DNA from: a virus
Taxonomy: Duplodnaviria; Heunggongvirae; Uroviricota; Caudoviricetes
IMG/VR virus record: IMGVR_UViG_2703718840_000006
Length of the DNA stretch: 17,364 nucleotides
Direction: 5' to 3' (one strand)
In this document: positions 3,337 through 17,364 of the stretch, piece after piece
Numbering within the stretch: position 1 is the first letter of the stretch
How the letters are laid out: the number at the start of each line of letters is the position of its first letter
Notes under the pieces: model-generated
The model's input: only the letters and a program-made list of their open reading frames with translations
Databases searched by the model: none
Told to the model about the DNA's origin: nothing
Translations under genes and position numbers: made by a program

Positions 3337-3506
3337 GCACGAAACCTCATGGATGATTCAATACAATGTAGTGGATAAAATTGATCAAATTTCAACCGAA
3401 TTCAACTGTTTTATCATTGATTAGAGCGAATTTGGTAGATCTTCGAGGTGTATGATAATCGAGAAGAGATGTGAATTATTTAGCTGATATGACCGACAGC
3501 TTTCGT

Positions 3507-3556
3507 TATGTGGACTCAATGTCCCCATTTGTAAATGGCTATGCTTAGTCCACATA
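3507..3556. repeat. Nested inverted repeat (10-bp arms TATGTGGACT/AGTCCACATA around an inner CCATTT-GT-AAATGG palindrome)
   Basis: Read directly: perfect 10-bp arms at 3507-3516 and 3547-3556, inner palindrome at 3525-3538. Lies between the integrase stop and the recombinase start. Candidate protein-binding or recombination site; no U-tract, so not a canonical terminator. Confidence 0.4.
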
Positions 3557-3618
3557 GGTTAATGGTGTGATTATTAATTCTTTAACTAAATCAAGATAGT
3601 TAATCCATCATGGGAGAG

Positions 3619-4848
3619 TTATGCGGCAATAACTTTGCATTTTTGAGACGAAACATAGTCACTCCACCATTGCATGAGAACCACCCGTTCAGTGAGATAC
3701 TCTGCACGATTGTAGGCTGCAATTATTTCATCTTTCTTCGAGTGGGCAAGGGCGGCTTCTAAGACATCAGTCCTAAACTTGCCAGACTCCTCAGCAGCCG
3801 TTCTAGCAATGGATCGCATACCGTGAGCTACAAGCTCACCTCCGAAACCCATACGGATTATGGCCGCATTAGCTGTTTGTTCATGCATGTGATTGAGTGG
3901 AGCTTTGATACTGGGGAACACCCACTCTCTATGCCCGCTGATGACTTTCATTAAATCCAAAACTCGCAAAGCTTCTTTGCTCAGTGGAACTTTGTGAGGC
4001 TTCTTCATTTTCATAAACTCCGCCGGGATGTTCCACATGCCAGTTTCAATATCAATATCTGACCATCTTGTGCGAACAGCTTCACCTGGGCGAACCCATG
4101 TGAGAAGTTGCCACTCAATCAGTAGCCTTGTTTCCAAACGGATAGAAGCATTGTTTAGAGCAACCAAGAAGCGAGGGAGTTCGGAAGGGGGTAATGCTGG
4201 CATATTCTGTTTTTTTGGCTTGCTGAACCGTTGCCCCAGGTTGTCTGCCGGGTTGAATTCTATGAGTTCTTCTGTTGCTGCATAGCGGAAAATTTCATTC
4301 AGGCGGGATATGATGCGGCGAAGTGTTTCAAGGACACCTCGTTTTTCTATGGGTTCTAAATGCTGTTTAAGCATTTTAGGGCGAATCTCCTTAATTGGGG
4401 TATCACCCAATGTGGAAAAGATATTTCTCTCTAGGCTTCGCCAGATGTCGTTAGCATGATCTTGGGAGATGCCTGACGTTTTGACTTTCTCATCAAGCCA
4501 CTTCTTGGCTACTGCTTGAAATGTATGTTCCGTGGCATCTTTCAGTGCATTGGCTTTTTGGTTGTTATGAACTTGGGGGTCTATACCATTTGTAAGCAAC
4601 GACAAGTATTCATCACGTAAAGCTCGTGCCTTCGCAAGTGTAAGGTGAGGATAGGTTCCTAAGCTCACCTTAGTTCGCTTTTTGGTCACAGGCACTGCAT
4701 ATCTGAAATACCAATTTTTCTTCCCTCCCTTCGCCAGGGGAGCGATTCGCAACAGCAAACCATCGCCGTCAAAAAGGTTAACCTCTTTTTCGGCAGGTTT
4801 GGTGCTTTTGATTTCAGTGTCAGTGAGCTTCTTAGCGATTTTGGCCAT
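3619..4848 (-). CDS. P4-type tyrosine integrase (arm-binding N-terminal domain plus catalytic domain)
   Basis: Start chosen at the internal ATG (4846-4848, MAKIAKKLTDTEIK) with GAGGG upstream; the track ORF extends to 4929 with a non-canonical start. N-terminal KLTDTEIKSTKP...LFDGDGLLL...WYFRY is typical of P4-like integrases; C-terminal HGMRS and AAYNRAEY supply the HxxR and catalytic Tyr. Lies immediately downstream of the ssrA 3' fragment, same orientation. Confidence 0.85.
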   Translation of the reverse strand: MAKIAKKLTDTEIKSTKPAEKEVNLFDGDGLLLRIAPLAKGGKKNWYFRYAVPVTKKRTKVSLGTYPHLTLAKARALRDEYLSLLTNGIDPQVHNNQKANALKDATEHTFQAVAKKWLDEKVKTSGISQDHANDIWRSLERNIFSTLGDTPIKEIRPKMLKQHLEPIEKRGVLETLRRIISRLNEIFRYAATEELIEFNPADNLGQRFSKPKKQNMPALPPSELPRFLVALNNASIRLETRLLIEWQLLTWVRPGEAVRTRWSDIDIETGMWNIPAEFMKMKKPHKVPLSKEALRVLDLMKVISGHREWVFPSIKAPLNHMHEQTANAAIIRMGFGGELVAHGMRSIARTAAEESGKFRTDVLEAALAHSKKDEIIAAYNRAEYLTERVVLMQWWSDYVSSQKCKVIAA

Positions 4849-5014
4849 GTTTGGGACCCTCGATTTTAGGACCCATCTTCGTGGGTCCCATTCAGGGTGC
4901 CATAACTCGTAGTTCTCAGCAATTCTCACTAGACTACAATAGACGTAAAAAAGCCCGCAGAGCTTGTGCTGTGCGGGCTTAGTAGACTTTACTGAACTTC
5001 AGTACATCAATATT

Positions 5015-5047
5015 TGGTGGAGCTGGCGGGAGTTGAACCCGAGTCCG
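5015..5047 (-). ncRNA. ssrA: 3'-terminal fragment of tmRNA gene ssrA (T-arm, acceptor 3' strand, CCA); integration-site core copy, not a full gene
   Basis: Minus-strand read CGGACTCGGGTTCAACTCCCGCCAGCTCCACCA matches my recollection of the E. coli tmRNA 3' end (GGGTTCAACTCCCGCCAGCTCCACCA). The adjacent upstream sequence is AT-rich and unrelated to tmRNA, and would overlap the methyltransferase CDS, so only the terminal ~33 nt are present. Confidence 0.75.
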
Positions 5048-5119
5048 TATTTTTATAATTAGCTGAAATAAAACGATTAATACTAACCATTTTATTCTGC
5101 GGATCTTTTGCGGCTCCTT

Positions 5120-6019
5120 TTATGTCTGGATGTGGTCGTCAACACATCCTCTTTTAAATATAGGCGCTTTTACCTTAGTTGGATCATCTGTTTTAAAGAT
5201 TTTCAATCGTTCACTGAAGAACATTACCTCAGATCCTTTGTACCGATCTTGAGCACTGTAGTTTATTCCATATACTAATGATGATGTCTTATACATAGCT
5301 TGGATCTCAGGAGTGTTATCGTAAGAAACAATCCAAGGCGTTTTAATATTATTCTGTACGACTTTTGCAACCCTAACATGATCATCATGATCATAATGGT
5401 TGATATATAAACCTTTACCTTTTATGTAATAAGGTGGATCCAAATATGTTAATGAGTTTTGTGGCAATTGAATAACTATTTTTTTTATGAAATCAATTGC
5501 ATCCATGTTATATAAATCTATTCTGTGACGATTTTCTGATATTTTATGGATTCGAGAAATCAAATCACTCTTATTATAGCGAGCGTCAAGCTTCCATTTC
5601 CCTTCTTGATTTTTACCGCCAATTACACCACCTTTTAATATTCCAGAACGATTTGTTCTATTGAGAAAAAAGGTTGAGAAACCAATTGTTAAAAGATCAT
5701 GGTCTTTAGGATTATTAATTATATCTTTCTGCCTAAACCATTCATCCATTGTAACTTCTGTTCTTTCAATTAAAGAACATAATTGATCTGCATGATTTAA
5801 TACACTGTGCCAAAAAGCATAAACAGAAATATTAATATCATTAAGGATGATTTTTTCAGCTGCATTTAGATGTAACAGTTTCAATGCTAAACCAGCACCC
5901 CCAGCATATGGTTCGGCATAATGTATAGGCGAAAGATTATTTTCTTCAATAATCCGAAGCATGAAATTTGCAAGCTTGCCTTTACCGCCAGGATAGCGAA
6001 GTGGGGTGTTAAAACGCAT
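5120..6019 (-). CDS. Dam-family (D12 class) N6-adenine DNA methyltransferase
   Basis: 299 aa. Motifs in Dam order: LRYPGGKGK, YAEPYAGGAGLA (AdoMet-binding), FFLNRTNRSG, YLDPPYY (catalytic DPPY). GAGG lies 6 nt upstream of the ATG at 6019. Target sequence cannot be read from sequence. Confidence 0.85.
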   Translation of the reverse strand: MRFNTPLRYPGGKGKLANFMLRIIEENNLSPIHYAEPYAGGAGLALKLLHLNAAEKIILNDINISVYAFWHSVLNHADQLCSLIERTEVTMDEWFRQKDIINNPKDHDLLTIGFSTFFLNRTNRSGILKGGVIGGKNQEGKWKLDARYNKSDLISRIHKISENRHRIDLYNMDAIDFIKKIVIQLPQNSLTYLDPPYYIKGKGLYINHYDHDDHVRVAKVVQNNIKTPWIVSYDNTPEIQAMYKTSSLVYGINYSAQDRYKGSEVMFFSERLKIFKTDDPTKVKAPIFKRGCVDDHIQT

Positions 6020-6053
6020 ATGATACCTCTAAATGTCAGATCTAAAGTATATC

Positions 6054-6092
6054 AAAAAAAGGGCTTTATGGCCATCACATAAAACCCTTTTT
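6054..6092. terminator. Bidirectional intrinsic-terminator-like hairpin between the ATPase and methyltransferase genes
   Basis: A7 (6054-6060), stem GGGCTTTATG / CATAAAACCC (one mismatch) with 7-nt loop (6061-6087), then T5 (6088-6092). On the minus strand the hairpin is followed by a U7 run. Confidence 0.45.
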
Positions 6093-6098
6093 AATCAA

Positions 6099-7832
6099 TT
6101 AGTTATCTGACAGATATGATGAGATGGTAGCAGAATCGACACCATGTCCACTTATCATAATAACTTTAAGACTCTTTATTAGTTCATTCTTGAAGCTATC
6201 CGATTGCACAGGATTTTTCTCGACCCAATATCGATATGGGTTATCTTTAACTCGTCCTTTGACTTGGTCCTGAAATTGAGTCGTATGTGCAAAATCTTTA
6301 AACAGTTTTCTCACTCTCCCGCCATGATTTTTGTTAACTTTTTTATAATTATCTATAAGGATTTTTAAATCAATCGGAGCGTTACCAATCTTTAGCGTTG
6401 TAATTATGTCTTTAGCTGTTTTCATAAAAACAGATTTTGTAAATTTATTTTTATTTTCCCAATATGCATCATCAGGTGGTAAATTATATAAAAACTCAAA
6501 AATCATTTGGTCTGGAGGTAAGGTGCTTGGAAGCAAACATAAGTTTTTTTCTTTTTTGGCTTTTTTTGCATTAGCACTGTTGTCGTGAACAACATCACCG
6601 TCTAAGACGATCAAGCTTTTAGCTGTAAATTCTGGTATTTTTCTTGCCATTAAGTCAAGCATGGCAGAGCAGCTAATATTTATATTTCCTAATGGATTTA
6701 ATATTTTATTTATTTTTCGATCTGTTATCAATTGTTTGAAAAAGTCGAAACCTTCTTTGTCTTCAAAATATACATTTGCTTTTGGAAGACAAATGTCATC
6801 ATTAATTTTTACAGTTTCAACATGTAAATCAGCGTGGATATCTGTCCATGAAAGATTATTCTTTGTTTTAATATCTCCATATGTGTCTGTAAGATATATT
6901 GTTTTAAAGCTATCACTATCTTGTTTTGAACGATTATAGATATCCTCTATTATTAATGGAGAGTGCGAGGTCATGATTATTTGCAGATCGTATTGTTTTG
7001 CTGCTTTAGTTAGAATATTAATTAGCTCTAACTGTGCAGCAGGGAAAAGACCTGCATCGGCTTCATCAATTAACAATATTCCGCCATGATAATCAGAATA
7101 AGTTTCCTTCAATCTTTTAAATGAAAAAATTGCTTGGATTAATTGTCCAACATTATCTTCACCAACAGATACTGATTGGTGATCATAATTGTCACCATGG
7201 ACAACCATTGAATCGATAGTACCTTTTGTTGCTGTTACTGAGCTTCCATTGTTTTTTAGTAAGAGTTGGTTACTCATCATTCTGATTTCATCAGAATTTT
7301 CATTGATGTACTGAACATCCCGTGTTGAGTAATCAGTCCTTAATGTAATAGGAAGAAGTCGTGCTAAGCTTAAAAAAATAACAGGATGAGTAACGTTTCT
7401 ACTTTGGTTTTTTTCCGGTATTGAATCATTTCCCCTGACTACAGGCCTTGATTTATCTCTGTCACTGTAGCTGTATAAACCTAATGTTAGTTTTTCAAGA
7501 TGTTTGTTCGATGCACCATCATAGACACTAATTTTGACGTCCATTGAACCAGGAACATCAAATTGTTCTGAAAGCCTAAAATGTTCGCTGAAAGCTGACT
7601 TGAAGCTGCCATTTGTTAATGTTTTATATTGTGTTAAATCAGTCTCAGGGTTTTTGGTAAAGTCCTTTGTAAAGCTAAATATTTGGGCGATAATGCCAAG
7701 AATTGTGGATTTAGATGTGCCATTTTTACCACAAATAACAGTTAGGCGAGAACCAAACTCGATGTTTATATTTTTCAGTCCGCGAAACTTCACAACATTT
7801 ATATTTTTTAGTTTGGTAATTTGATTTGCCAT
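6099..7832 (-). CDS. ABC/SMC-type ATPase with TOPRIM-like C-terminal region (OLD-family or fused PARIS-like nuclease candidate)
   Basis: Walker A GKNGTSKST, Walker B ILLIDEAD, H-loop IMTSHSP. The C-terminal ~250 aa contain FEDKEG and LDGD acidic motifs about 55 residues apart, consistent with TOPRIM (not verified). Start placed at internal ATG 7832 (MANQITKLKNI; GGAG upstream; Walker A then sits at the usual distance); the track ORF starts at 7883 with no SD. Confidence 0.7.
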   Translation of the reverse strand: MANQITKLKNINVVKFRGLKNINIEFGSRLTVICGKNGTSKSTILGIIAQIFSFTKDFTKNPETDLTQYKTLTNGSFKSAFSEHFRLSEQFDVPGSMDVKISVYDGASNKHLEKLTLGLYSYSDRDKSRPVVRGNDSIPEKNQSRNVTHPVIFLSLARLLPITLRTDYSTRDVQYINENSDEIRMMSNQLLLKNNGSSVTATKGTIDSMVVHGDNYDHQSVSVGEDNVGQLIQAIFSFKRLKETYSDYHGGILLIDEADAGLFPAAQLELINILTKAAKQYDLQIIMTSHSPLIIEDIYNRSKQDSDSFKTIYLTDTYGDIKTKNNLSWTDIHADLHVETVKINDDICLPKANVYFEDKEGFDFFKQLITDRKINKILNPLGNINISCSAMLDLMARKIPEFTAKSLIVLDGDVVHDNSANAKKAKKEKNLCLLPSTLPPDQMIFEFLYNLPPDDAYWENKNKFTKSVFMKTAKDIITTLKIGNAPIDLKILIDNYKKVNKNHGGRVRKLFKDFAHTTQFQDQVKGRVKDNPYRYWVEKNPVQSDSFKNELIKSLKVIMISGHGVDSATISSYLSDN

Positions 7833-7890
7833 GTTTGTATCTTGCTCCGTAAAATGGCCACAAATTGTGGCCAATAGTTTCATGCTTGGA

Positions 7891-9057
7891 TTATATTGTT
7901 ATCTTCTTCAAGCTTGTTTGTCCATCATATTCCTTCAGATATGAGCCATAGTGCCTGAAAAGCATCTCCGGTCCTTTATGCCCCATTTGAGCTGCAAGCC
8001 AAAACAGGTTTGCTCCTCGGCTGATATGGCTGGTGGCGAATGTATGCCTGGTTTGATATGGATTTCTGTATCGAATACCTGCTTTCCGCAATGTTGGAAC
8101 CCATGCTTTTTTCCTGATTGCATCAGCACTTGCCCAAGGCTTATTGGTCTTTGGGTCTTCAAAGACAGTAGCATCCTTCATGAATGTAAATGGCTTCTGA
8201 TTTATCAGCGCCAACATTGCTTCTTCTGTCAGTTCAACTTTACGAGTACCTGCTTTTGTCTTTGTCCCTTTGATAACACCGACAACACTTGCGCTCTGGA
8301 CATGGGCAGTTTTTCCAACAAAGTCGATATCACGCCATCGAAGGGCACATAATTCAGAACTACGCAGGCCTGTATGTATAGCGAACCGGAACAGATTCTC
8401 CCATTGTTTGTTTCCGGCTGCTGCTAGTAATGCATCAACTTCTGCTGGTGATAGCGGATCAACCACGTAGCTGCTTTCTGCTTCTGACTTATCACTTTGG
8501 TAGCGCGAAGCAGTTACCAACGATACGGGGTTAATTTGAAGTACCCCATCGGTTACGGCTTCATCAAGTGCTGACCGCAGGAAAGATAACTGGTTGCGAA
8601 TTGTTTTTAAGGTCGTTTTCTGGCTTTGAATCCACGCTTTCAGGATTGCTGGTGTTAATTCACTTGCAGGGCAAATGTGGAGTGAGGCTAACGCACTACG
8701 GCATTTTTTATAACCACCAATCGTTGAGGGTGAGAGTTTTCTCGTTTCGCAGATTTCAAGGTATTCGTCCAAGTACATTTTTACCGTTTTGCCTGCAGCA
8801 GCATTACCAAAAATTTTCAAACGAGCAGAACGGGGAAAATATTCCGCATAAATGAATGTTCCCCTTTCGATCTTATTATGAATTTCGCCGAGTGTGCGCT
8901 CGGCGTATTTAATGTTCTTTGGTGTTACTTCCAGATTGGAAAGAGGCTCACGACATTTAACTCCTTTATAGGTGAAAGTTATATTGATCGTTTCGCCCTG
9001 GCGGTGTTTCCTGATTGTTACGCCGCGCGGTAGTTTGAGCAGTTTTGTCTGGCCCAT
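7891..9057 (-). CDS. int: Lambdoid-type tyrosine integrase
   Basis: 388 aa. C-terminal catalytic signature QTRHTFATSH...GH...RHYGSY. Preceded by an overlapping excisionase-like gene. Transcribed toward the ssrA-derived att side, as in lambda. Confidence 0.85.
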   Translation of the reverse strand: MGQTKLLKLPRGVTIRKHRQGETINITFTYKGVKCREPLSNLEVTPKNIKYAERTLGEIHNKIERGTFIYAEYFPRSARLKIFGNAAAGKTVKMYLDEYLEICETRKLSPSTIGGYKKCRSALASLHICPASELTPAILKAWIQSQKTTLKTIRNQLSFLRSALDEAVTDGVLQINPVSLVTASRYQSDKSEAESSYVVDPLSPAEVDALLAAAGNKQWENLFRFAIHTGLRSSELCALRWRDIDFVGKTAHVQSASVVGVIKGTKTKAGTRKVELTEEAMLALINQKPFTFMKDATVFEDPKTNKPWASADAIRKKAWVPTLRKAGIRYRNPYQTRHTFATSHISRGANLFWLAAQMGHKGPEMLFRHYGSYLKEYDGQTSLKKITI

Positions 9058-9224
9058 TTTGCAACCTCACTAAGATCAATCCACCTCTCCTTAACGCCTT
9101 CAACCTTTAAAACCTGAACACCTTCACGCCAAACACCGCGCTGTACACGTTTGTTTATTGCTTCAGGAGTTTCGCCAGTTTCTTTGCAATAAGTTGAGAT
9201 TGGAACACAATCGAGGTTCAGCAT
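9018..9224 (-). CDS. xis: Excisionase-like small DNA-binding protein (recombination directionality factor candidate)
   Basis: 68-72 aa; ATG at 9224 with GGAG 7 nt upstream (the track start at 9236 is GTG). Winged-helix-like pattern (ISTYCKETGETPEAINKRVQRGVW...WIDL); overlaps the int start, the classic xis-int arrangement. Family assignment by pattern only. Confidence 0.55.
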   Translation of the reverse strand: MLNLDCVPISTYCKETGETPEAINKRVQRGVWREGVQVLKVEGVKERWIDLSEVAKWARQNCSNYRAA

Positions 9225-9283
9225 ATGTTTCTCCACTTAGCCCGCTGCACACGGGCAGTAATATCAAATTCCAGTCCTGATAA

Positions 9284-9499
9284 TTAATTTTGTTCCCTGG
9301 TTGCTACCTGTTTTATTGGCCTGATGCTGTCCAGTAGCAGACGGCGACGCATGTTAGGTGCACCCCAACGGTAACCAGTCTTTTTGTCGTAGGATTCACA
9401 ACGTCCGGCAACCCAGGACGTTTCAGTGGAATGTAATTTCATCCGCTTTTCACCGTCTCGGGTGATAACAATTCCTGTATGAGTTTTTATCACGCTCAT
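9284..9499 (-). CDS. Hypothetical small phage protein (position of yfdT in KplE1-like operons)
   Basis: 71-aa ORF overlapping the upstream gene by 4 nt (operon context). No motif recognised. Confidence 0.45.
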   Translation of the reverse strand: MSVIKTHTGIVITRDGEKRMKLHSTETSWVAGRCESYDKKTGYRWGAPNMRRRLLLDSIRPIKQVATREQN

Positions 9500-9858
9500 T
9501 TCTTAGTCTCTGGTGCTTTCGGCATTACTGCCCAGTGAGTGATATTGACGTTTTCAAGGTCCCCGACCTGAAATGTCCACTGCCATTCTCCGGTTTCTTT
9601 TTGTCCCCAGGTGTACCAGAGAGAACGCCAGCCAATCAGCCAGCCTTCTCCGTTAGCATCAAATAACAGAACACTTTCATTTGCTGGAGGCAGTTCAGCT
9701 GACACTGGTATTATTTTGCTTTCCAGTGCCGCACATTTAGCTTCAAGCGCGTCGAATTTACGTACCAGGTACTCAGCATTTGTTTCGTTCACTTTCAGAT
9801 CTCGCGGTACACATTTCCCGCGAAGAAACCCTTCCATTTCGAAAACATTCATGCGCAT
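9496..9858 (-). CDS. DUF551-like phage protein (YfdS-like by size and synteny)
   Basis: 120 aa; Trp-rich C-terminus (GWLIGWRSLWYTWG...ITHWAVMP) resembling DUF551. Same size and operon position as E. coli yfdS, from memory. Confidence 0.5.
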   Translation of the reverse strand: MRMNVFEMEGFLRGKCVPRDLKVNETNAEYLVRKFDALEAKCAALESKIIPVSAELPPANESVLLFDANGEGWLIGWRSLWYTWGQKETGEWQWTFQVGDLENVNITHWAVMPKAPETKK

Positions 9859-10385
9859 TTGCGTAATTCCGATAATTCGTTAAAGCGTTTCATAAACATC
9901 CCGTAGGCATGGCCTGGAGCCAGTGGAATAACTTTGAACATCTCTGTTGCCGGGATACCTTCCAGTACAGGCCAGAAAGAGCCATCATCAAGCCCGAGAT
10001 CGCGGCGTTCGGTTGCCAGCATGATGAGATCGGCATATTTCACGGGCGTGCTCATAACCGGGGGTAACCCGTATTTCTCACGGATGACGACGTCTATTTT
10101 TTCTTCCATCCGTTTATAGTCAGGAAGAAGTCGTTTCAGTGGTGCGGGGATGTCCTGGCAATACGCTTCTGTTGCATCATGCATTAACGCTTCAAAAGCA
10201 AATTCCTGCGGCACCAGCTGGCTGCAAAGCACTGCATGCTGGGCGACACTGTAGAAGTGTGAAAGATGTCCTGCAAAGCGACAGATATTTGAAAGGGAAA
10301 CCGCGATATCGTTAATCACGATGTCGTCTTTATTTATCTTGTCATAATAAAAATGCTTCCCGGAAAAAGTTTTAATAAATGACAT
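9849..10385 (-). CDS. HD-domain phosphohydrolase (YfbR/YfdR-like 5'-deoxynucleotidase family)
   Basis: HD motifs (SHFYSVAQHAVL; LMHDATEAY). Start placed at ATG 10385 (MSFIK; GGAG 7 nt upstream), giving 178 aa, the size I recall for YfdR; the track ORF starts 9 codons earlier. Confidence 0.75.
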   Translation of the reverse strand: MSFIKTFSGKHFYYDKINKDDIVINDIAVSLSNICRFAGHLSHFYSVAQHAVLCSQLVPQEFAFEALMHDATEAYCQDIPAPLKRLLPDYKRMEEKIDVVIREKYGLPPVMSTPVKYADLIMLATERRDLGLDDGSFWPVLEGIPATEMFKVIPLAPGHAYGMFMKRFNELSELRKCA

Positions 10386-10512
10386 TTTGTTCTCCACGTA
10401 TATGCGCTGCACCGCGCTGAATTTTGGTTAAAGAAAACCCTCGCCATCAGGCGATTATTGAGTCAATTATGTTTCCATAAATGCCCCCGCAGGGGCATTT
10501 GCAGTAAGGAAA

Positions 10513-11337
10513 TCAGGCGGTAAAAGTACCAATAAAGGTTTCTACTTTGCTGTCTTTGAATTTCTCAACAAGCAGATCACGAAATTCGTTAGCCATTTCT
10601 TCCTGCACTGCTTCCAGCTGAATAATGCGCAGAACCAGTACCGGACGATCGCCAGTGATAATGCTGAGGCGTAATTTAAACGGACGTTCTTTCAGGCCTT
10701 CAAACGGAACGCATTTAAATTCAAATGCCACTGGCATAATGTCTTTGGTCTTCGCTTCGACAGATTCCATCAGGGAGCGTTTGCCGCTGAAGTCATTATC
10801 TTCAAAATCAGCGGTCTGGTTTGCTTCAATCGTGATTTTACGGACTGCCGCAGCCGCTTTTGTTGCCTGAATGGCGTCACCATTAGCATCAAAGCCCACA
10901 AGGTAGTCGGCCCAGTCTTCAATCCATTCTGCCAGTGACTTCTGGGAGTTACGCTCGCCGTTAACAGACAACAGGGCAGAGAACGGTGCTGTCTTTTTCA
11001 GTTTGAGAGTGGCAGTGTTATCTGCGTGACCTGGCTCATCAATAGTACCCAGGTTAAGCACACTGACGGCACGCATATTATCGGCATCGATAAAGCAGCG
11101 GGTGCCTTCATCTGCAAGATCTTTAGAATAACGGGTAAAGTCATCGATGCTGGCAGTGGAAAGCGCACCACGGAAACGGAAACGATTTAAATTAAATTTT
11201 TCCAGATCATGAATGCGGAAATTCTCAGGCAATGCCACAGCATCGGCACCAATCTTACTGATAATTTCATTAACACCCTGAGCAGAAATAAGGGCATGGA
11301 TTTGATTAATTGCGGTTGCGTCTAAGTTCTGAGACAT
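10513..11337 (-). CDS. DUF2303-like phage protein (YfdQ-like by size and synteny)
   Basis: 274-aa ORF, the size I recall for E. coli YfdQ, in the same operon order. No catalytic motif recognised. Confidence 0.6.
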
Positions 11338-11402
11338 AATAAGTCCTCACTATATAAAGATATTCAGTGATGAGATAAATAATCAGTTTATTAAGTATGA
11401 TA

Positions 11403-11765
11403 TTAACGACCTGCTGCGCGGAGTTTTCCGTCAGGTTCACCGGCAAGAGTCAGTAATTGTCCCTGGTCTTCCTGCAGAATAGTCAGGCGACCACCGCGAT
11501 TGACATACATCGGCGTTTCGGTGGTGTCTTCTTCGGAAATTTTCCCGCGGTTAGTCGGGCGAACATATGAGAGTTTGTGTTTGATTTTCACACGGTTCTC
11601 ATCAAATGGTTCGATTTCCAGGTTGAGTGAGACCTTACCTTTGGTTTTCGTGTTCATCACACCGGAAGCGACTTCACTGAGAACTGCGCCGATTTTTGTT
11701 TCAAATACGCCGCCGTCCAGCTCCCCGATAAATGCCTGCACATCAGTACTGCGTTCGCTAGCCAT
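11403..11765 (-). CDS. Hypothetical early-left phage protein (YfdP-like by size and synteny)
   Basis: Start set at the internal ATG (MASERSTDVQAF) with AGGAGC 7 nt upstream, giving 121 aa. The 197-aa track ORF has a Cys/Arg-rich N-terminal extension that overlaps the leader and looks non-genic. Confidence 0.55.
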   Translation of the reverse strand: MASERSTDVQAFIGELDGGVFETKIGAVLSEVASGVMNTKTKGKVSLNLEIEPFDENRVKIKHKLSYVRPTNRGKISEEDTTETPMYVNRGGRLTILQEDQGQLLTLAGEPDGKLRAAGR

Positions 11766-12373
11766 TTTGTTGCTCCTCATCATATCGACCCTGCAAGGCC
11801 GATTAGTTTCTCCACAAAACAGAGAAGAACACCTGCGGTGGCAGCCGCCCGGATGGATTGGGTTATGAGCCCGTCGTCCGGTGATGCTCTTCTCTGTTTT
11901 GTAAAAAGAGCGGTACCAGCCGGAAGCAAGTGTACAAACTGGTACCGCCAAAGCAGTGGCTGTTGTGGTGGGGTTGTCACTCAGGCGTATGGTCAACCTG
12001 ACAATCCGGTGTCCTCAACGGGGAAAGAGTAACCCCGCCATACTTACCGCCGCGCCATTTCGCGGATGACCACAACGCTGAGAGCACTTAGCCAGTTACG
12101 GCACCACACTTTGTCGCGGCTCCATAAATGCCCTCATCGTTGCACCCTGGTCTCTTCCCAGGCGTCAAACCGGATCGCCACGCTGGTTAGGCGTCTTATC
12201 AGCATCATCATTGACTTGCACATTCCGGCTACCTGGTTTGTTTGCCCTAGCAAGGAGTGGATTGTCCCCTTTAACGTCCCCAGACCGCTAACGACGCATG
12301 TGCCATACGCCGTGTTACAACCAAATTTTGTTAGTACCTTGTTTGTTGGTCTGGAAAGAAAGATAAAATGAAA

Positions 12374-12411
12374 TTGCGCGTTGTGCAAGTGCTTTGTTGC
12401 GGGATATGCAA
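12374..12411. promoter_or_regulatory. Candidate OL operators: two 15-bp TTGC-N7-GCAA sites, with probable leftward pL
   Basis: TTGCGCGTTGTGCAA (12374-12388) and TTGCGGGATATGCAA (12397-12411); the first is nearly identical to an OR site (TTGCGCGTTAAGCAA, 13180-13194). Just downstream of the cI terminator, as in lambdoid immunity regions. Confidence 0.45.
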
Positions 12412-12428
12412 TTTAATGGGTAATGAAA

Positions 12429-12446
12429 AGCCACCTTCGGGTGGCT
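12429..12446 (-). terminator. Intrinsic terminator downstream of cI
   Basis: Perfect 7-bp stem AGCCACC/GGTGGCT with TTCG tetraloop; on the minus strand it is followed by UUUUCAUU. Located 20 nt after the cI stop. Confidence 0.5.
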
Positions 12447-12466
12447 AATTGATGAGGAGGTAAGGG

Positions 12467-13159
12467 TTAATTGTGTCGCTTAAGGGTTTGTGACTGGCTG
12501 ATTAAGACCTTTCCAAAGACCATAAACCGGTGTTCATTTTCGCTGGTAATTCCCCATTCACGGTAAATCTGGTTATCAGAAATCACCAGTAGTTTGTCAG
12601 GTATCATTTGCAGTCGTTTGACATAAATTTTATCATCAAAACCAAATACATAGATACCATCTCCATCAAACTGATTGATACTGACATCAACGAAGATGAG
12701 ATCTCCTGGCTCAATGGTTGGACACATACTGTCCCCACGAACGTTGATAACTTTAATGTGATTGGCTGGTCGTCCGCCAAACATCGATACAGCATTATCA
12801 GTTCTGTATTCAATGGCATGAATCACATCAATGACATCACCGCCCTGGATAAGGCCATTTCCCGCACTGGCACTGACATCCAGCATTTCAATACGGAATA
12901 CATCCTTCACCTGCGCAACATCCTCACTAATACTGTTTTTACATACAGTATTACTTTTGAAGTCTGAGGTAAAGAGATCAGCAATATCAACACCTAAGCT
13001 CCTGGCAATATTACTCAGGGCTTGTTCAGTGAATTGTTTCTGCTTACCTGTTTCCAGGCGTGAGATATTCGCCGCATCCACTCCTATTGCTTCAGCGAGA
13101 TCGGCGATTTTCATGTTCTTCGCCTGGCGAAGTTGTCTGACTCGATTTCCTATGTTCAT
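12467..13159 (-). CDS. cI: CI-like phage repressor (HTH_XRE N-terminal domain plus S24 LexA-like autopeptidase domain)
   Basis: 230 aa. N-terminal HTH (IADLAEAIGVDAANISRLETGKQ); C-terminal S24 signature GDSMCPTI (Ser nucleophile) and downstream VKR (Lys). Divergent from a cro-like gene across an operator-rich 97-bp intergenic region. Confidence 0.9.
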   Translation of the reverse strand: MNIGNRVRQLRQAKNMKIADLAEAIGVDAANISRLETGKQKQFTEQALSNIARSLGVDIADLFTSDFKSNTVCKNSISEDVAQVKDVFRIEMLDVSASAGNGLIQGGDVIDVIHAIEYRTDNAVSMFGGRPANHIKVINVRGDSMCPTIEPGDLIFVDVSINQFDGDGIYVFGFDDKIYVKRLQMIPDKLLVISDNQIYREWGITSENEHRFMVFGKVLISQSQTLKRHN

Positions 13160-13256
13160 GCGTTTATTACATTTCTTTATTGCGCGTTAAGCAAATCAAC
13201 TTGCGCAAAATAGTTGCGTGAAATAATATGCTTATCACGCAATATGTGGAGGTTAT
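13160..13256. promoter_or_regulatory. OR-like divergent promoter/operator region between cI and cro
   Basis: TTGC-N7-GCAA site at 13180-13194, degenerate copy ATGCTTATCACGCAA at 13228-13242, palindrome TTGCGCAA at 13201-13208, inverted TTGCGTGA/TCACGCAA arms. Candidate pR: -35 TTGCGC (13201-13206), 17-bp spacer, -10 TAATAT (13224-13229). GGAGG RBS at 13248-13252 before the cro ATG. Confidence 0.55.
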
Positions 13257-13394
13257 ATGCAATCACCATTACGGAATGTGCGTAAAGCGCACGGATTTAC
13301 TTTGCAGCATGTTGCTGCGGGCGTTCAGGTCAATCCAGCGACGCTGAGTCGTATTGAAAGACAGGAACAAATTCCATCTACCGTCCATGAATGA
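13257..13394 (+). CDS. cro: Cro-like HTH protein, C-terminally truncated by a deletion junction
   Basis: 45-aa ORF not in the supplied track (too short). HTH_XRE-like segment FTLQHVAAGVQVNPATLSRIERQEQ. The ORF ends abruptly where lambda-G-like sequence begins. Confidence 0.55.
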   Translation: MQSPLRNVRKAHGFTLQHVAAGVQVNPATLSRIERQEQIPSTVHE

Positions 13395-13581
13395 AGCCGT
13401 TAAACAGATTGAGCAGGAAGTGCTTACCACCTGGCCCACGGAGGCAATTTCTCATGCTGAAAACGTGGTGTACCGGCTGTCTGGTATGTATGAGTTTGTG
13501 GTGAATGATGCCCCTGAACAGGCAGAGGACGCCGGGCCTGCAGAGCCTGTTTCTGCGGGAAAGTGTTCGACGGTGAGCTGA
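13387..13581 (+). pseudogene. G: Remnant of tail assembly chaperone G (C-terminal part only), fused to the truncated cro region
   Basis: Translation PSMNEAVKQIEQEVLTTWPTEAISHAENVVYRLSGMYEFVV...PVSAGKCSTVS matches my recollection of the lambda gpG C-terminus. ATG at 13387 overlaps the cro stop (ATGAATGA); no SD. N-terminal half of G is absent. Confidence 0.6.
13557..13563 (+). other. Programmed -1 frameshift slippery heptamer G GGA AAG (G-T frameshift site)
   Basis: GGGAAAG in the lambda X XXY YYZ register relative to the G-fragment frame (GCG GGA AAG). The downstream T-like ORF is in the -1 frame and overlaps by 19 nt. Confidence 0.6.
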
Positions 13582-13997
13582 GTTTTGCCCTGAAACTGGC
13601 GCGCGAGATGGGGCGACCCGACTGGCGTGCCATGCTTGCCGGGATGTCATCCACGGAGTATGCCGACTGGCACCGCTTTTACAGTACCCATTATTTTCAT
13701 GATGTTCTGCTGGATATGCACTTTTCCGGGCTGACGTACACCGTGCTCAGCCTGTTTTTCAGCGATCCGGATATGCATCCGCTGGATTTCAGTCTGCTGA
13801 ACCGGCGCGAGGCTGACGAAGAGCCTGAAGATGATGTGCTGATGCAGAAAGCGGCAGGGCTTGCCGGAGGCGTTCGTTTTGGCCCGGACGGGAATGAAGT
13901 TATCCCCGCTTCCCCGGATGTGGCGGACATGACGGAGGATGACGTAATGCTGATGACAGTATCAGAAGGGATCGCAGGAGGAGTCCGGTATGGCTGA
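13563..13997 (+). CDS. T: T portion of the tail assembly chaperone G-T frameshift product
   Basis: ORF in the -1 frame relative to the G fragment with no ATG of its own (track start is GTG). Sequence (FDGELSFALKLAREMGRPDWRAMLAGMSSTEYADW...GVRYG) matches my recollection of lambda gpT. Its stop overlaps an ATG GCT GAA CCG GTA (MAEPV) H-like start. Confidence 0.6.
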   Translation: MFDGELSFALKLAREMGRPDWRAMLAGMSSTEYADWHRFYSTHYFHDVLLDMHFSGLTYTVLSLFFSDPDMHPLDFSLLNRREADEEPEDDVLMQKAAGLAGGVRFGPDGNEVIPASPDVADMTEDDVMLMTVSEGIAGGVRYG

Positions 13998-14031
13998 ACC
14001 GGTACCCGGTGGTAATGGCTGCAGGGGCTGA
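13990..14031 (+). pseudogene. H: Five-codon remnant of the tape-measure gene H start (MAEPV) followed by out-of-context sequence and a stop
   Basis: ATG overlapping the T stop encodes MAEPV (lambda H begins MAEPVGDL in my recollection), then PGGNGCRG and a stop. Implies a deletion junction near 14005. Confidence 0.4.
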
Positions 14032-14239
14032 CTCAGGGCAGTGGGACGTTATGACATGGAGTGATGCTGATAATCAGCAGGTGAAACTGTCGATGACGGA
14101 ACTGGAGGAGCTGGCTGCAGCTATGGCGCAGGCGCAGGTTGATCGCAATAATGAGATTTATCGTCATCAGCGTGAAATGAAAGAGGAACTGAGCAATCTC
14201 CTGGATTTGAAGCAGGTTAGGGAGTTCAGTCCAGAATAA
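14009..14239 (+). CDS. Hypothetical ORF or gene fragment in the tail-fibre region (no ATG start, possibly a remnant)
   Basis: 76-aa track ORF with a non-ATG start, downstream of the H deletion junction. Helical-looking sequence with no recognised motif. May be the 3' end of a deleted gene. Confidence 0.3.
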   Translation: MVMAAGADSGQWDVMTWSDADNQQVKLSMTELEELAAAMAQAQVDRNNEIYRHQREMKEELSNLLDLKQVREFSPE

Positions 14240-14332
14240 GAAAAAACGTAGTACATCGTATTCAAGAGGATCTATGCTGGCATCGTAGCTGTTTTTAAAC
14301 AGTAAGTAGCCGTTGAAGGTCACAGGGGAAAA

Positions 14333-14695
14333 ATGCTCTTTGACTTGGCTTCCGGGGACGCACTATTTATCTCTGAACCAGGCCCATTAGCGGAAAATGT
14401 CACCTGGTTGTCGCCGGAAGGGGAATATCAGAAGTGGAACGGTACAGCCTGGGTGAAAGATGCAGAAGCAGAAAAACTATTCCGGATCCGGGAGGCGGAA
14501 GAAACAAAAAACAGCCTGATGCAGGTAGCCAGTGAGCATATAGCGCCGCTTCAGGATGCTGTAGATCTGGAGATCGCAACGGAGGAAGAAAATTCGTTGC
14601 TGGAAGCCTGGAAAAAGTATCGGGTGTTGCTGAACCGTGTTGATACATCAACTGCACCTGATATTGAGTGGCCGATAATTCCTGTAACATCATAG
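14333..14695 (+). CDS. tfa: Tail fibre assembly protein (lambda Tfa family, short form)
   Basis: 120 aa; ATG with AGGGGA upstream. Sequence [14 protein letters not shown]...[19 protein letters not shown]...[25 protein letters not shown] closely matches my recollection of the lambda Tfa C-terminal two-thirds. Confidence 0.8.
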
Positions 14696-14712
14696 TCATT
14701 ATTTATTTGTTT

Positions 14713-14743
14713 TGCTGACATGTTGTATACGACAACGTGTCAG
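14713..14743. terminator. 13-bp inverted repeat hairpin between convergent tfa and the HEPN gene (possible bidirectional terminator)
   Basis: GCTGACATGTTGT / ACAACGTGTCAGC arms (one G-T position) with a 5-nt loop. Flanking U-tracts are weak on both strands. Confidence 0.35.
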
Positions 14744-14807
14744 CAGTTTGACTGGTATTATAACGAATATATTGTAATGTTTTCTGGTGTTATTAATTGT
14801 TGTTTTA

Positions 14808-15761
14808 TTACCATATATCTATGGGTTTTGTTTTCTGCTCATCTAAACAAAATGCACAGATGTAAGCCCCCTTACTTCGGTTGTACTGAACCGTTTCTAA
14901 AGCAGAGTCAAGATGTTTACTATCAAAGTTCCAGCTTTTTTCCATAACAGAAACACATTTTCTGCAATAGAAACTTTCTTTTGAGTTAGTATCTCCTGAA
15001 TCATTTTTAGTGTAGCCAAAGAATTTTTTTGCTGATTCCTTTGAACATGCGGAAATGGCTGCAGTGAACTCATAATGAGTTTGAAGCATAGCCCATACAA
15101 TACCTGAAAATTCTTCATCCTCGTCTTCATCTAATCCTATATTAATGCCGCCAGAGGAATGTATTGCTTTATATTTATACCTATGCCATATCCAGTGTGC
15201 TGATTCAGTATTTAGATAGTTGTGAGCACGTACAACTGATGTGAAAATTAGCTCTGGCATTATATCTGTTTTTTTATCAACCGTATGCATAAAACGATTT
15301 CTTAGAATGCGCATACTATTAAACCAAGTAATAAAGTCATCAGGCAGTGATTTAGAGGCGAAAGTATTATATACTTTAATTAAATCTTGGGCGTCTAATG
15401 TGTGGAAGTCTGAAAATGAAATGTTACCTTCACTATCAGGTTTAGGTGTATTGCGAGTTGCATTCGTGATAAGTAGATAAGGTGATATTTCGACGATAAG
15501 TCCTTTTAGTCTGAATTCAATGGATTGAAGTATCAAATTAAAAGATGTAATCAATTTGGGTCTAGCAAATAACCAATAATGCTCTAAATTTTTAATATCT
15601 GATTCTGTATAGAATTCAGACGTTTTACAATAACTATTCCAAAGGTTTATATCTCTGTAATCATAAGCTAAATCGGCAATTTTTTCCCAAGCCTCATTTA
15701 CCATGTGGTCAGCCATTGTATAAAAATCAGTCTTTGTTGGAATGTCAGTTATCATTATCAA
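14808..15761 (-). CDS. HEPN-motif protein, Abi_2 (AbiD/AbiF)-like, with C-terminal CxxC...CxxC zinc ribbon
   Basis: 317 aa, AT-rich. Mid-protein ILRNRFMH matches the HEPN Rx4H motif and the Abi_2 RN..AH context. C-terminal CRKC-(28 aa)-CAFC. Own AT-rich upstream region. Confidence 0.5.
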   Translation of the reverse strand: MIMITDIPTKTDFYTMADHMVNEAWEKIADLAYDYRDINLWNSYCKTSEFYTESDIKNLEHYWLFARPKLITSFNLILQSIEFRLKGLIVEISPYLLITNATRNTPKPDSEGNISFSDFHTLDAQDLIKVYNTFASKSLPDDFITWFNSMRILRNRFMHTVDKKTDIMPELIFTSVVRAHNYLNTESAHWIWHRYKYKAIHSSGGINIGLDEDEDEEFSGIVWAMLQTHYEFTAAISACSKESAKKFFGYTKNDSGDTNSKESFYCRKCVSVMEKSWNFDSKHLDSALETVQYNRSKGAYICAFCLDEQKTKPIDIW

Positions 15762-15992
15762 TCTACCTTTGGGTCTTTATTGTTGTCTATCAAGATATAA
15801 TATTCAGGCTGGAGTGGCTAATGTTGATCTACTTATTTTCTCCCGGTAAGTCAGTTTATCGCGATATAAGCCGCATTTGATTTTGGCGACTATGGTCGTG
15901 TTAGGTATGTATCTGGCGTGTTACTGCGCCAGATTAAATATAAACCAATAATATTAAAGGGTGTTACTCTCTTGACAGATTTAGGGAACAAA

Positions 15993-16187
15993 TCACTCGT
16001 CAGCTGACTCCCAAGTATCTTTCAGAGTTTCCTGAACAAAAGTTTTAGCTGAATCTTTATCGGCGGTGCGCCTAACAGAAAAACCATCGTTGCTGGTGGC
16101 TTTTACGATCATCTCCACATCGTCATAATGCTCGCCAATGTATTGGGTTAATTCTTCCTTTAATGCGTCTACAGCGCCGTTTGGCAT
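15993..16187 (-). CDS. DinI-family protein (short form)
   Basis: 64 aa. [13 protein letters not shown] and the C-terminal TWESADE match the DinI pattern (AIDALAGEL...ETWESADDWF, from memory). In-frame stop 7 codons upstream excludes a longer form. Two LexA boxes upstream. Confidence 0.75.
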
Positions 16188-16241
16188 TTGGTCATTTTGT
16201 CTTTGGCTATGGAGATCTCAATACGCATAACATTTCTTTTG

Positions 16242-16289
16242 TACTGCGTTTGTAGACAGTATTATTCTTATCTGTGTAAATAAACAGTA
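16242..16289 (-). promoter_or_regulatory. Two LexA (SOS) boxes overlapping the dinI-like promoter
   Basis: TACTGCGTTTGTAGACAGTA (16242-16261; CTGC-N8-ACAG, one mismatch) and CTGT-N8-ACAG (CTGTGTAAATAAACAG, 16272-16287). On the minus strand a TTGATA -35-like hexamer sits directly upstream of the second box. 55-100 bp upstream of the start codon. Confidence 0.55.
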
Positions 16290-16470
16290 TCAAGACTTCG
16301 TTTTAGCTGCATAAGAAAAAAGAGATGGATACATTCGGAAAGATTTTGATGGTGGTAGGTTAAGTGAATAGCCTAAAGGTGTTTTACCCCAATTATTCCC
16401 CGGTATTTCTCCGCATAAAAAACAATCATAAAAACAACAGCCATAATAGGCTGGTTCTTAAGGGATTTTT

Positions 16471-16510
16471 GGTCCACGAGAGAATTTGAACCTCCGACCC
16501 CCGACACCCC
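16471..16510 (-). other. tRNA-like 3' fragment (T-arm plus acceptor 3' strand, no encoded CCA); possible attachment-site or mobile-element junction remnant
   Basis: Minus-strand read GGGGTGTCGGGGGTCGGAGGTTCAAATTCTCTCGTGGACC: T-loop TTCAAAT flanked by a 5-bp stem with two G-U pairs, then 7-nt acceptor strand plus discriminator. No complementary 5' acceptor strand upstream, and no match to any E. coli tRNA I can recall. Confidence 0.25.
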
Positions 16511-16531
16511 ATAATGGTGTAATTAATCAGG

Positions 16532-16900
16532 TTAAATATTTAGCAGATCCTCTACAATATCATTAAACCCAGATGCCTGTTTAGATACAGAATTGAATAA
16601 GTCTCTAAGTGCTTGTGTTTGCTCAAAAGTTTCCCAAAGTGTTTTATAACTTGGCGTTACAATTGCTAATACTAAGCCTTCCGCCCATGACCATTCATGT
16701 TCATCAAAATAGTAGCGATATTTTCTGCTGTATATAACAAAATCCTTTTCCTTATATTTAGCATGAAACACAACTTGAATTATATCCTGTGTACCATTAA
16801 CAAGGTTTTCAGGCGCATCAATTGCCATCCAATTTATCATTTTTTGGACAGTTAACTTATTTAATGAAACAATTAGCTTTGTGGTTTTATCGTTATGCAT
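16532..16900 (-). CDS. Hypothetical protein, second gene of a coupled two-gene operon
   Basis: 122-aa ORF; ATG 2 nt after the stop of the upstream ORF. AT-rich. No recognisable motif. Confidence 0.5.
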   Translation of the reverse strand: MHNDKTTKLIVSLNKLTVQKMINWMAIDAPENLVNGTQDIIQVVFHAKYKEKDFVIYSRKYRYYFDEHEWSWAEGLVLAIVTPSYKTLWETFEQTQALRDLFNSVSKQASGFNDIVEDLLNI

Positions 16901-16902
16901 AA

Positions 16903-17364
16903 TTAGTCCAGTTGCATATCTTTCACAATTTCGTTAACTCTTGAGTTGAGTATACTCAACTTCTCATAGAGCTTCCAGGCTTGGTCTTGGTCATTGATAT
17001 TAATGGAGATTTCTTTTCTTCGAAAGATTCCTTTGGGTTTGACTTCATCAAAAAATATATCAATCTTTGAGCGTTCCTTGGTTGGAAGCCTGCTGAAAAG
17101 GCTTTCAGTTAGCACTGCACACTCAGTAAACTCCTTACGTATAAATTCTTTCTGAGTAACCCAGTCTCCAATAGCATCATTTATCAATGAGGCTTTTTTT
17201 TGAAGATTGCTATGGATTTCAGGTATTCGAACCTTGTTTCTGAGAGTGGCCTTCAATGAACGCGTCGTAAAAAAAAGTTTTACAGTTACAACAAAACCGA
17301 CAATACCCGCTAGGGAGGATATGTCAGTTACCGTCTGTGATAGGGGCCAAGTCAGGATATCCAT
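16903..17364 (-). CDS. Hypothetical membrane-anchored protein (N-terminal TM helix); 5' end at the window edge, may be partial
   Basis: 153-aa ORF whose ATG is the last three bases of the window. Hydrophobic segment ISSLAGIVGFVVTVKLFF near the N-terminus, then a charged soluble domain. Confidence 0.45.
   Translation of the reverse strand: MDILTWPLSQTVTDISSLAGIVGFVVTVKLFFTTRSLKATLRNKVRIPEIHSNLQKKASLINDAIGDWVTQKEFIRKEFTECAVLTESLFSRLPTKERSKIDIFFDEVKPKGIFRRKEISININDQDQAWKLYEKLSILNSRVNEIVKDMQLD

Follow-up and report, generated by a model that had tools for sequence, protein, structure and literature searches.

What leaves the start of a lambdoid cro gene joined to the second half of a lambda tail gene? 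The question is raised by the IMG/VR virus record IMGVR_UViG_2703718840_000006, a stretch of 17,364 nucleotides that is referred to here as the window. At positions 13257-14031, an original prediction made from the letters alone had recognized a cro-like open reading frame (ORF), a downstream frame resembling the C-terminal half of lambda gpG, a T-like ORF and the first codons of the tape-measure gene H, and had read this arrangement as the scars of at least two internal deletions. We consider it likely that the locus is a cryptic lambdoid prophage at ssrA which was trimmed by at least two events of illegitimate recombination at short homologies. It combines an immunity region of the PhiR63_1/mEp460 type with lambda-type tail genes.

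Two junctions and the DNA missing at them

The cro-like ORF (cro´) stops after 45 codons, as had been predicted (13257-13394, including TGA), compared to 86 residues in the intact homologue (WP_001191669), and its product reads MQSPLRNV...IPSTVHE. At the first junction (J1), cro ...CCATCTA is joined to G CCGTCCATG.... In a three-way alignment of cro and G from Escherichia coli 1303 and G from lambda, the parents of J1 showed an exact overlap of 0 nt and a patchy similarity (.T..CG.CC); three extra bases of phage 434 that aligned at J1 proved to be a BLAST extension through mismatches and not microhomology. At the second junction (J2), H ...GAACCGGTA is joined to DUF4376 CCCGGTGG... across a 2-nt TA overlap. 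The flanks of the junction partners matched at 12/24 (J1) and 8/24 (J2) positions. Neither junction carries an insertion sequence (IS), an attachment (att)-like sequence or a long repeat, and a repeat scan found no repeats connecting the partners. Since the overlaps measure 0–2 nt and IS, att sequences and long repeats are absent, both junctions were assigned to short-homology illegitimate recombination.

The DNA between the junctions (window 13381-14004, 624 bp) corresponds to positions 9933-10556 of lambda (J02459) at 98.9% identity and to phage mEp332 at 99.8%. As lambda G occupies 9711-10133, T 10115-10549 and H starts at 10542, the piece spans G codon 75, all of T and H up to codon 5. This alignment mapped both junctions and bore out the similarity to G, T and H that had been predicted without database searches, including the assignment of the second frame to the C-terminal half of gpG (codons 75-140). 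With regard to the slippery heptamer, the register claimed for it held, whereas the claim that G ends there did not: five further codons lead to the TGA at 13579-13581. The T-like ORF was indeed found in the -1 frame, and its stop (13995-13997) overlaps the ATG of MAEPV, after which unrelated codons run to a stop, again as described. The heptamer owes its significance to the lambda homology rather than to motif frequency, since GGGAAAG occurs in the window at the level of chance (2 found vs. 2.08 expected); G GGA AAG is named as the lambda G/GT heptamer in PMC3296357 (Table 1, citing Levin et al. 1993). An identical T protein turned up in 60,992 blocks of an assembly collection and thus represents a common wild-type allele, too common for this look-up to inform on the occurrence of the scar.

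An intact counterpart was found in E. coli 1303, where a prophage of ~46.6 kb (locus L003; NZ_CP009166.1, 4870728-4917316, yjjG/prfC) is collinear with the remnant and carries, in this order, CI, Cro, lambda-type V-G-T-H, a 188-codon DUF4376 gene and a tail fibre assembly gene. Window 12069-13380 aligns with L003 8664-9976, window 13381-14004 with L003 32543-33166, and window 14003-14674 with L003 44870-45541, the latter being 100% identical over 672 nt. Compared to L003, 22,566 bp are missing between cro and G and 11,705 bp between H and the DUF4376 gene, about 34 kb together; no counterpart of L003 9977-32542 or 33167-44871, where replication, lysis and morphogenesis genes are located, is present in the window. 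The claim that the genes for replication, lysis and the head, together with the greater part of the tail genes, had been lost through at least two internal deletions is supported by this collinear prophage. The 1303 element shares with the remnant the same CI, the Cro family, lambda-type G-T-H, the DUF4376 gene and their order, but it is complete, has another integrase and attachment site, and its G-T segment is 97.8% identical.

In the course of events that we propose, a first deletion would have run from cro nt 124 to G codon 75, with the loss of ~22.6 kb (the rest of cro, the replication genes, Q, lysis, head and tail genes up to mid-G). A second would have run from H codon 5 into the central part of the DUF4376 gene, closing over TA and costing ~11.7 kb, which comprised the genes from H to J, lom and the tail fibre gene. 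Both joins may have been made, as separate events, by RecA-independent joining at short imperfect homologies, in a manner like microhomology-mediated end joining (MMEJ). The 624-bp G´-T-H´ piece would then be a chance leftover between two deletions. Locked in the chromosome, the remnant retains CI immunity, int, the early-left genes and defence-like cargo, and it has no capacity for replication, lysis or virion production. That G´-T remains undecayed, at 99.8% identity to a live phage, would say solely that the deletions are recent.

The retained prophage at ssrA

At 5014..5047, the 3´ end of ssrA is duplicated over 34 nt; this copy represents attL and forms the left border of the prophage (33/34 positions identical by BLAST of the ssrA 3´ end of strain UK_Dog_Liverpool, NZ_CP031653.1, against the window). 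At its right end, the window follows the DNA that directly precedes ssrA in that strain, and this synteny places attR and ssrA just outside the window. From attL and this right-end synteny, it follows that the remnant extends from 5014 to just beyond the right window end (with ssrA roughly 200 bp further) and measures ~12.5 kb instead of ~47 kb.

The ssrA prophage of UK_Dog_Liverpool is collinear with window 1-11970, 12069-13380 and 14311-17364 at 98.6-99.0% identity, and related copies of it are present in strains 042 and HS. It has attL, int, the early-left genes, cI and the right arm up to ssrA in common with the remnant. In contrast, its cro and early-right genes are intact, a single deletion connects a truncated lysozyme gene with a tail fibre gene, and no G-T remnant is present. 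Because UK_Dog_Liverpool bears this different deletion, the same ssrA element has decayed along separate paths.

Table 1. Features of the prophage remnant, in window coordinates. A slash marks the position of a break.
Feature	Position	Strand	Description and evidence
D12-class adenine methylase	5120-6019	-	Pfam; full-length PADLOC match PD-Lambda-5_B, E=6e-124
AAA_15/AAA_21 ATPase, 594 aa	6099-7883	-	Pfam; PADLOC PtuA/AriA/GajA-type ATPase matches
Tyrosine integrase, intact, 388 aa	7891..9057	-	Pfam Arm-DNA-bind_2 and Phage_integrase; 385/388 identical to UK_Dog_Liverpool Int
Early-left operon (yfdR, yfdQ, yfdP-type genes, small ORFs), kept	9018..11996	-	ORF list; 97-99% collinear with annotated genes of the 1303 and UK_Dog_Liverpool loci
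CI-like repressor (HTH and S24 peptidase), intact, 230 aa	12467..13159	-	Pfam; matches WP_001311077 (E. coli 1303) at 230/230 residues
cI-cro intergenic control region	13160..13256	.	Imperfect 31-nt inverted repeat 13178-13244; 1/97 nt mismatched vs. 1303 intact prophage
cro´	13257..13394	+	41 native codons and 1 base of 86-codon Cro, then TVHE and TGA; Pfam HTH_3 positions 1-37/55 only
J1	13380..13381	.	cro nt 124 joined to G codon 75
G´ (tail assembly chaperone G)	13381..13581	+	Codons 75-140 and stop; 64/66 aa identical to lambda G; Pfam Phage_TAC_2 positions 75-125/126
Slippery heptamer G GGA AAG	13557-13563	+	G frame GCG GGA AAG, X XXY YYZ register
T reading frame, complete	13563-13997	+ (-1 frame)	matches lambda T at 144/144 aa; Pfam Phage_tail_T; reachable solely by frameshift from G´
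H´	13990..14031	+	MAEPV (5 native codons), then PGGNGCRG (8 out-of-frame DUF4376 codons) and TGA
J2	14003..14004	.	TA dinucleotide common to H (..CCGGTA/GGCG) and DUF4376 gene (..CCTTTA/CCCGG)
DUF4376´ (tail-fibre-region gene)	14005..14239	+	C-terminal ~78 of 188 codons; 100% identical to E. coli 1303; Pfam DUF4376 positions 43-96/106; out of frame with H´
Tail fibre assembly gene remnant, 120 aa	14333..14695	+	Pfam Caudo_TAP; homology to the 1303 prophage stops at 14674

In line with the original prediction, the immunity, early-left and integration functions were kept: CI is unchanged, Int is full length and the early-left genes are collinear with those of the relatives (Table 1). The cI-cro pair is annotated as cI and Cro in functional phages, PhiR63_1 (98.7% identity) and mEp460 (97.1%). 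The element thus combines an att flank at a known site, an integrase and an immunity region like that of functional phages with the loss of essential genes, as is characteristic of a cryptic lambdoid prophage. The inverted repeat between cI and cro is read as putative operators with divergent promoters, the promoters being assigned solely by homology. A consensus scan of this intergenic region found no promoter on the plus strand, i.e., in the direction of cro, and a single match on the minus strand (13250-13223); the scan gave 3 matches in all, which is not above chance, and a terminator scan was likewise uninformative.

The methylase and ATPase genes between attL and int (5120..7883) resemble a PD-lambda-5-like pair, judged by their domains and PADLOC matches, and may represent defence-like cargo. 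To the left of attL, window 1-4929 belongs to another island. It carries two ParB-like genes as well as genes for a recombinase of 518 aa and for a protein of 436 aa with an integrase domain, and it appears to be a tandem integration at an ssrA-derived site. An Rfam match to IS009 at 14454-14652 (220 bits vs. a gathering score of 117) lies wholly within the tail fibre assembly remnant; this Rfam family probably models the coding sequence for tail fibre assembly.

Break points, possible expression and rival explanations

Three features had not been part of the original prediction, namely the DUF4376 partner of H, the ssrA site and the independent recurrence of both break points. With regard to occurrence, the complete cro´::G´-T-H´::DUF4376´ arrangement was found in 0/5,426 complete RefSeq E. 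coli genomes, the exact junction strings had no match in the genome, viral and metagenome contig collections, and exact look-ups of the 76-aa and 75-aa junction ORFs returned nothing on record. An exact look-up of the 45-residue cro´ located J1 in contig 77 of E. coli MPEC4839, which is identical to window 11408-13450, and in run SRR3492230. J2 is present in contig 102 of MPEC4839, which is identical to window 13909-14556. The window and MPEC4839 also have in common a private L36Q substitution in cro´ (T-to-A, window 13363), which was present neither in the intact homologues examined (E. coli 1303 and CH4797) nor in the other three DNA-verified cro junction loci.

A protein search with intact Cro yielded ~35 different N-terminal Cro fusions, whose ends were clumped: seven partners follow S41 (cro nt 122-124), eight follow Y63/P64, four follow E80 and five lie at R47/L48, while among these fusions none ended in codons 49-62 or 65-77 save for homopolymer frameshifts. 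Four independent cro junctions verified at the DNA level have ...AATTCCATC-TA (window 13377-13381) in common; the adjoining sequence belongs to G in the window and MPEC4839, to DUF968 in SRR5642118, to tfa in E. coli H736 and to RusA in GCA_030002235.1. Three more partners at cro nt 122-124 are predicted from proteins. The second cluster comprises eight fusions at cro nt 186-192 (TTCTTTA/TCCGG). As for the DUF4376 gene, the right end of J2 was reused to the nucleotide in GCA_005401785.1, where the left partner is codon 14 of a lambda-type Nu1, and an 11-nt deletion (SRR24464863) together with another boundary fell within 10 nt of the break site (window 14003-14012). The junction overlaps mostly contain TA, and (N)CCG(G/T) opens the retained right DNA in 5/10 TA junctions vs. 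3% of the TA sites in an intact prophage, a pattern that was noticed post hoc and through look-ups that favour similar junctions. Left partners at recurrent junctions read TA-T-CCGG, TA-T-CCGT and TA-T-CG. A scan of IMG/VR with a 17-mer from cro returned 118 loci, all with native sequence downstream, and one chance match in unrelated DNA, which says nothing about hot spots.

The cro and DUF4376 break sites look like deletion hot spots, and the simplest reading of the recurrent ends is an imperfect microhomology of 5-7 nt with a GC-rich core. A preference of deletion ends for hot spots is known in illegitimate recombination of E. coli, as far as the reference list of PMC11372144 indicates. The many truncated Cro fusions and 'partial' DUF4376 proteins point to such decay being common in this phage family.

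Several candidate signals were considered for the break points and rejected. Chi (GCTGGTGG) occurs in the window at 8029 and 16092 only, and the Chi-like CCCGGTGG at J2 points the wrong way for protection of the DNA that was kept. Din-family invertases (Pin, Gin and Cin) recognize a 26-bp crossover site with AAACC-NN-GGTTT half-sites and exchange strands at its central dinucleotide; the J2 partners (ACCGGTA/GGCG and CCTTTA/CCCGGTGG) contain no half-sites of this kind, and the break does not coincide with the centre of a site. None of the YTAR targets of IS5, the CYSRG targets of Mu or the att core fits the recurrent end sequences. Hairpins were not significant at any of the break points, where DNA folding gave z = -1.4 to -1.7 at three sites and +0.4 at a fourth.

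Some further observations concern the same genes. Truncation of DUF4376 is very frequent, with >100 clusters of 'partial' proteins of 60-128 aa from E. coli and Shigella, and the DUF4376 break site sits in a weak quasi-palindrome, CCTTTACC-CGGT-GGTAATGG. Within G, three more rearrangements have their ends within ~10 nt of each other near lambda 9868-9880, adjoining AACCGGCGCG (L013, L014 and L016); their left partners differ, being H´, DUF1398-side sequence and terminase A´. The first of these loci (L013; GCA_900479535.1) carries a tandem triplication Z-U-V-G-T-H´. In prophages of other strains, an EcoRII-type restriction-modification module and a GIY-YIG nuclease gene adjoin a deletion scar (L039 and L014); L039 carries the same cI-cro, while L014 shares only the integrase type and has a different immunity region.

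The original prediction had also suggested that the cro::G junction could yield a reinitiated, frameshifting G´-T peptide. The native start and Shine-Dalgarno sequence of G were deleted, and the first in-frame ATG is codon 77 at 13387, located within ATGAATGA, 5 nt before the cro´ stop; cro´ itself is preceded by a strong GGAGG. Reinitiation on G´ after termination of cro´ is conceivable from this arrangement. Because CI is intact and the control region differs at 1/97 bases, the cro-side promoter should be repressed except after SOS induction, and such repression by CI is likely. The missing Shine-Dalgarno sequence and the likely repression both speak against appreciable expression of a frameshifting peptide. 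In lambda, ~96% of translation stays in the G frame and an excess of GT reduces the yield of phage (PMC3296357). Possible products are a G´ of 64 residues and traces of a G´-T of 203 residues, both probably without consequence.

Some of these results weigh against a simple history of two random deletions in a single prophage. The recurrence of both break points hints at more than random breakage; the 1303 prophage occupies another att site and is 97.8-100% identical per segment, which makes it a model of the ancestor and not the ancestor; a further assembly that unites J1 and J2 in a single contig was not found; and contig 102 of MPEC4839 reads V´-G(full)-T-H5::DUF4376´, with part of V and full-length G upstream and another G-T allele (10 single-nucleotide polymorphisms). 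In that strain G´-T is a repeat, so that contig 102 may have been routed across it, or J2 may lie there in another prophage copy. It could accordingly be asked whether J1 and J2 are both real but unlinked, being brought together by an assembler route through a G´-T repeat shared with a second lambdoid prophage, or by homologous recombination of two singly deleted prophages. Contig ends fit this idea, since the MPEC4839 contig with J1 stops 70 nt into G´ and a Logan contig with J1 stops 30 nt past the junction. For the linkage of J1 and J2, the evidence is the window itself and the synteny of both flanks, which belong to one ssrA locus as judged by UK_Dog_Liverpool; the G´-T allele of the window is a natural one, contig 102 comes from a short-read draft and can itself be mis-routed, and an origin by recombination would leave the same two illegitimate junctions. 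We therefore regard an unlinked origin as unlikely. A single complex event, in which replication template switching with two jumps made both junctions and kept the 624-bp island, seems similarly improbable: although the scars are close and collinear, both show minimal homology and no unambiguous single-scar intermediate was found, each break point recurs alone elsewhere with other partners, so an independent origin is possible, and contig 102, if correct, would be just such an intermediate carrying J2 only.

Recurrence itself could be explained by a sequence-preferring enzyme, be it a nuclease, a topoisomerase or an activity like that of a transposase or restriction enzyme, for which TA(N)CCG(G/T)-like sites in lambdoid prophages would be the targets of cleavage. 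The seven right partners at cro nt 122-124, four of them DNA-verified, the eight at nt 186-192, the reuse of the J2 right end with Nu1 and the enrichment of (N)CCG[GT] would all agree with such an activity. However, the pattern is post hoc, imperfect microhomology with a GC-rich core fits the same data, hot spots have precedents in E. coli, no match was found among known sites (Chi, Din invertase, IS5 and Mu), and the right partner of J1 is without TA; the probability that we assign to an enzyme is low. The broader proposition that the scars are non-random, with repeated breaks at cro nt 122-124, at 186-190 and at DUF4376 TTTA/CCCGG, TA at the crossover and (N)CCG(G/T) adjoining, is doubtful too, if by a shade less so. 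Candidate causes may include a nuclease encoded by the prophage or the host, a topoisomerase, or a switch of template that lesions provoke during SOS induction. If the proposition were true and due to a specific activity, the inactivation of prophages in E. coli would in part be programmed and not accidental. Lastly, G´-T might have been kept as useful, an SOS-induced PR-like promoter driving cro´-G´-T and a T-domain protein without the N-terminal half of G disturbing tail assembly of superinfecting lambdoid phages. The intact T frame and slippery site, a T protein equal to that of lambda, the position of the codon 77 ATG and the drop in lambda yield at a lower gpG:gpGT ratio (PMC3296357) would be compatible with such a role. 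Nevertheless, this ATG has no Shine-Dalgarno sequence, the frameshift gives ~4% GT in lambda (PMC3296357), 99.8% identity to a live phage is no signal of selection, and the relatives at the same locus lost G-T wholly while the scar is rare, which together make a useful G´-T very improbable.

Comparison with known systems

Trimming of one ssrA prophage by at least two short-homology deletions thus remains the preferred reading, and it can be set beside three known systems. Compared to the lambda G/GT cassette, the window piece has the same heptamer, register, T frame and overlap of the T stop with the H start. It differs in that the first 74 codons of G, the ribosome-binding site (RBS), the start and V are gone, H retains 5 native codons, and the piece lies behind a truncated cro instead of in a late operon. 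With regard to the hallmarks of a G/GT chaperone, a heptamer a few codons before the G stop and an open -1 T domain overlapping G are present, while a complete G domain with its own start and RBS and a position between V and a full H are missing. The piece is homologous to the lambda cassette and fails as a functional unit. In annotation, the label for cro´, G´, T, H´ and DUF4376´ should be that of pseudogene fragments and not of genes; the stranded G´-T also offers a natural test case of a frameshift signal fed by translational coupling alone.

The cryptic prophages of E. coli K-12 (Rac, DLP12, Qin and e14, and CP4-57 at ssrA) have likewise decayed by deletion, retain an integrase, some regulators and fragments of tail pseudogenes, and produce no particles. 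They differ from the remnant in break points and gene content, and we know of no K-12 cryptic prophage in which a G´-T frameshift cassette is fused to cro.

As to the mechanism, short-homology illegitimate recombination in E. coli has been studied through aberrant excision of lambda (Spi- assay), is MMEJ-like and is suppressed by RecQ and SSB (PMC11372144). Its genetic profile also includes independence of RecA and suppression by exonucleases. The junctions resemble its products in their overlaps of 0-4 nt, the lack of long repeats and the hot spots; unlike the events selected in the laboratory, those in the remnant have been fixed in natural strains and are known here from sequence. If confirmed by a census, the recurrent cro and DUF4376 breaks would locate fragile sites that shape prophage domestication. 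In its outcome the remnant is ordinary, a further instance of well-known prophage decay, and, being fully mapped, it documents the disarming of a lambdoid prophage that keeps its immunity, integrase and defence cargo.

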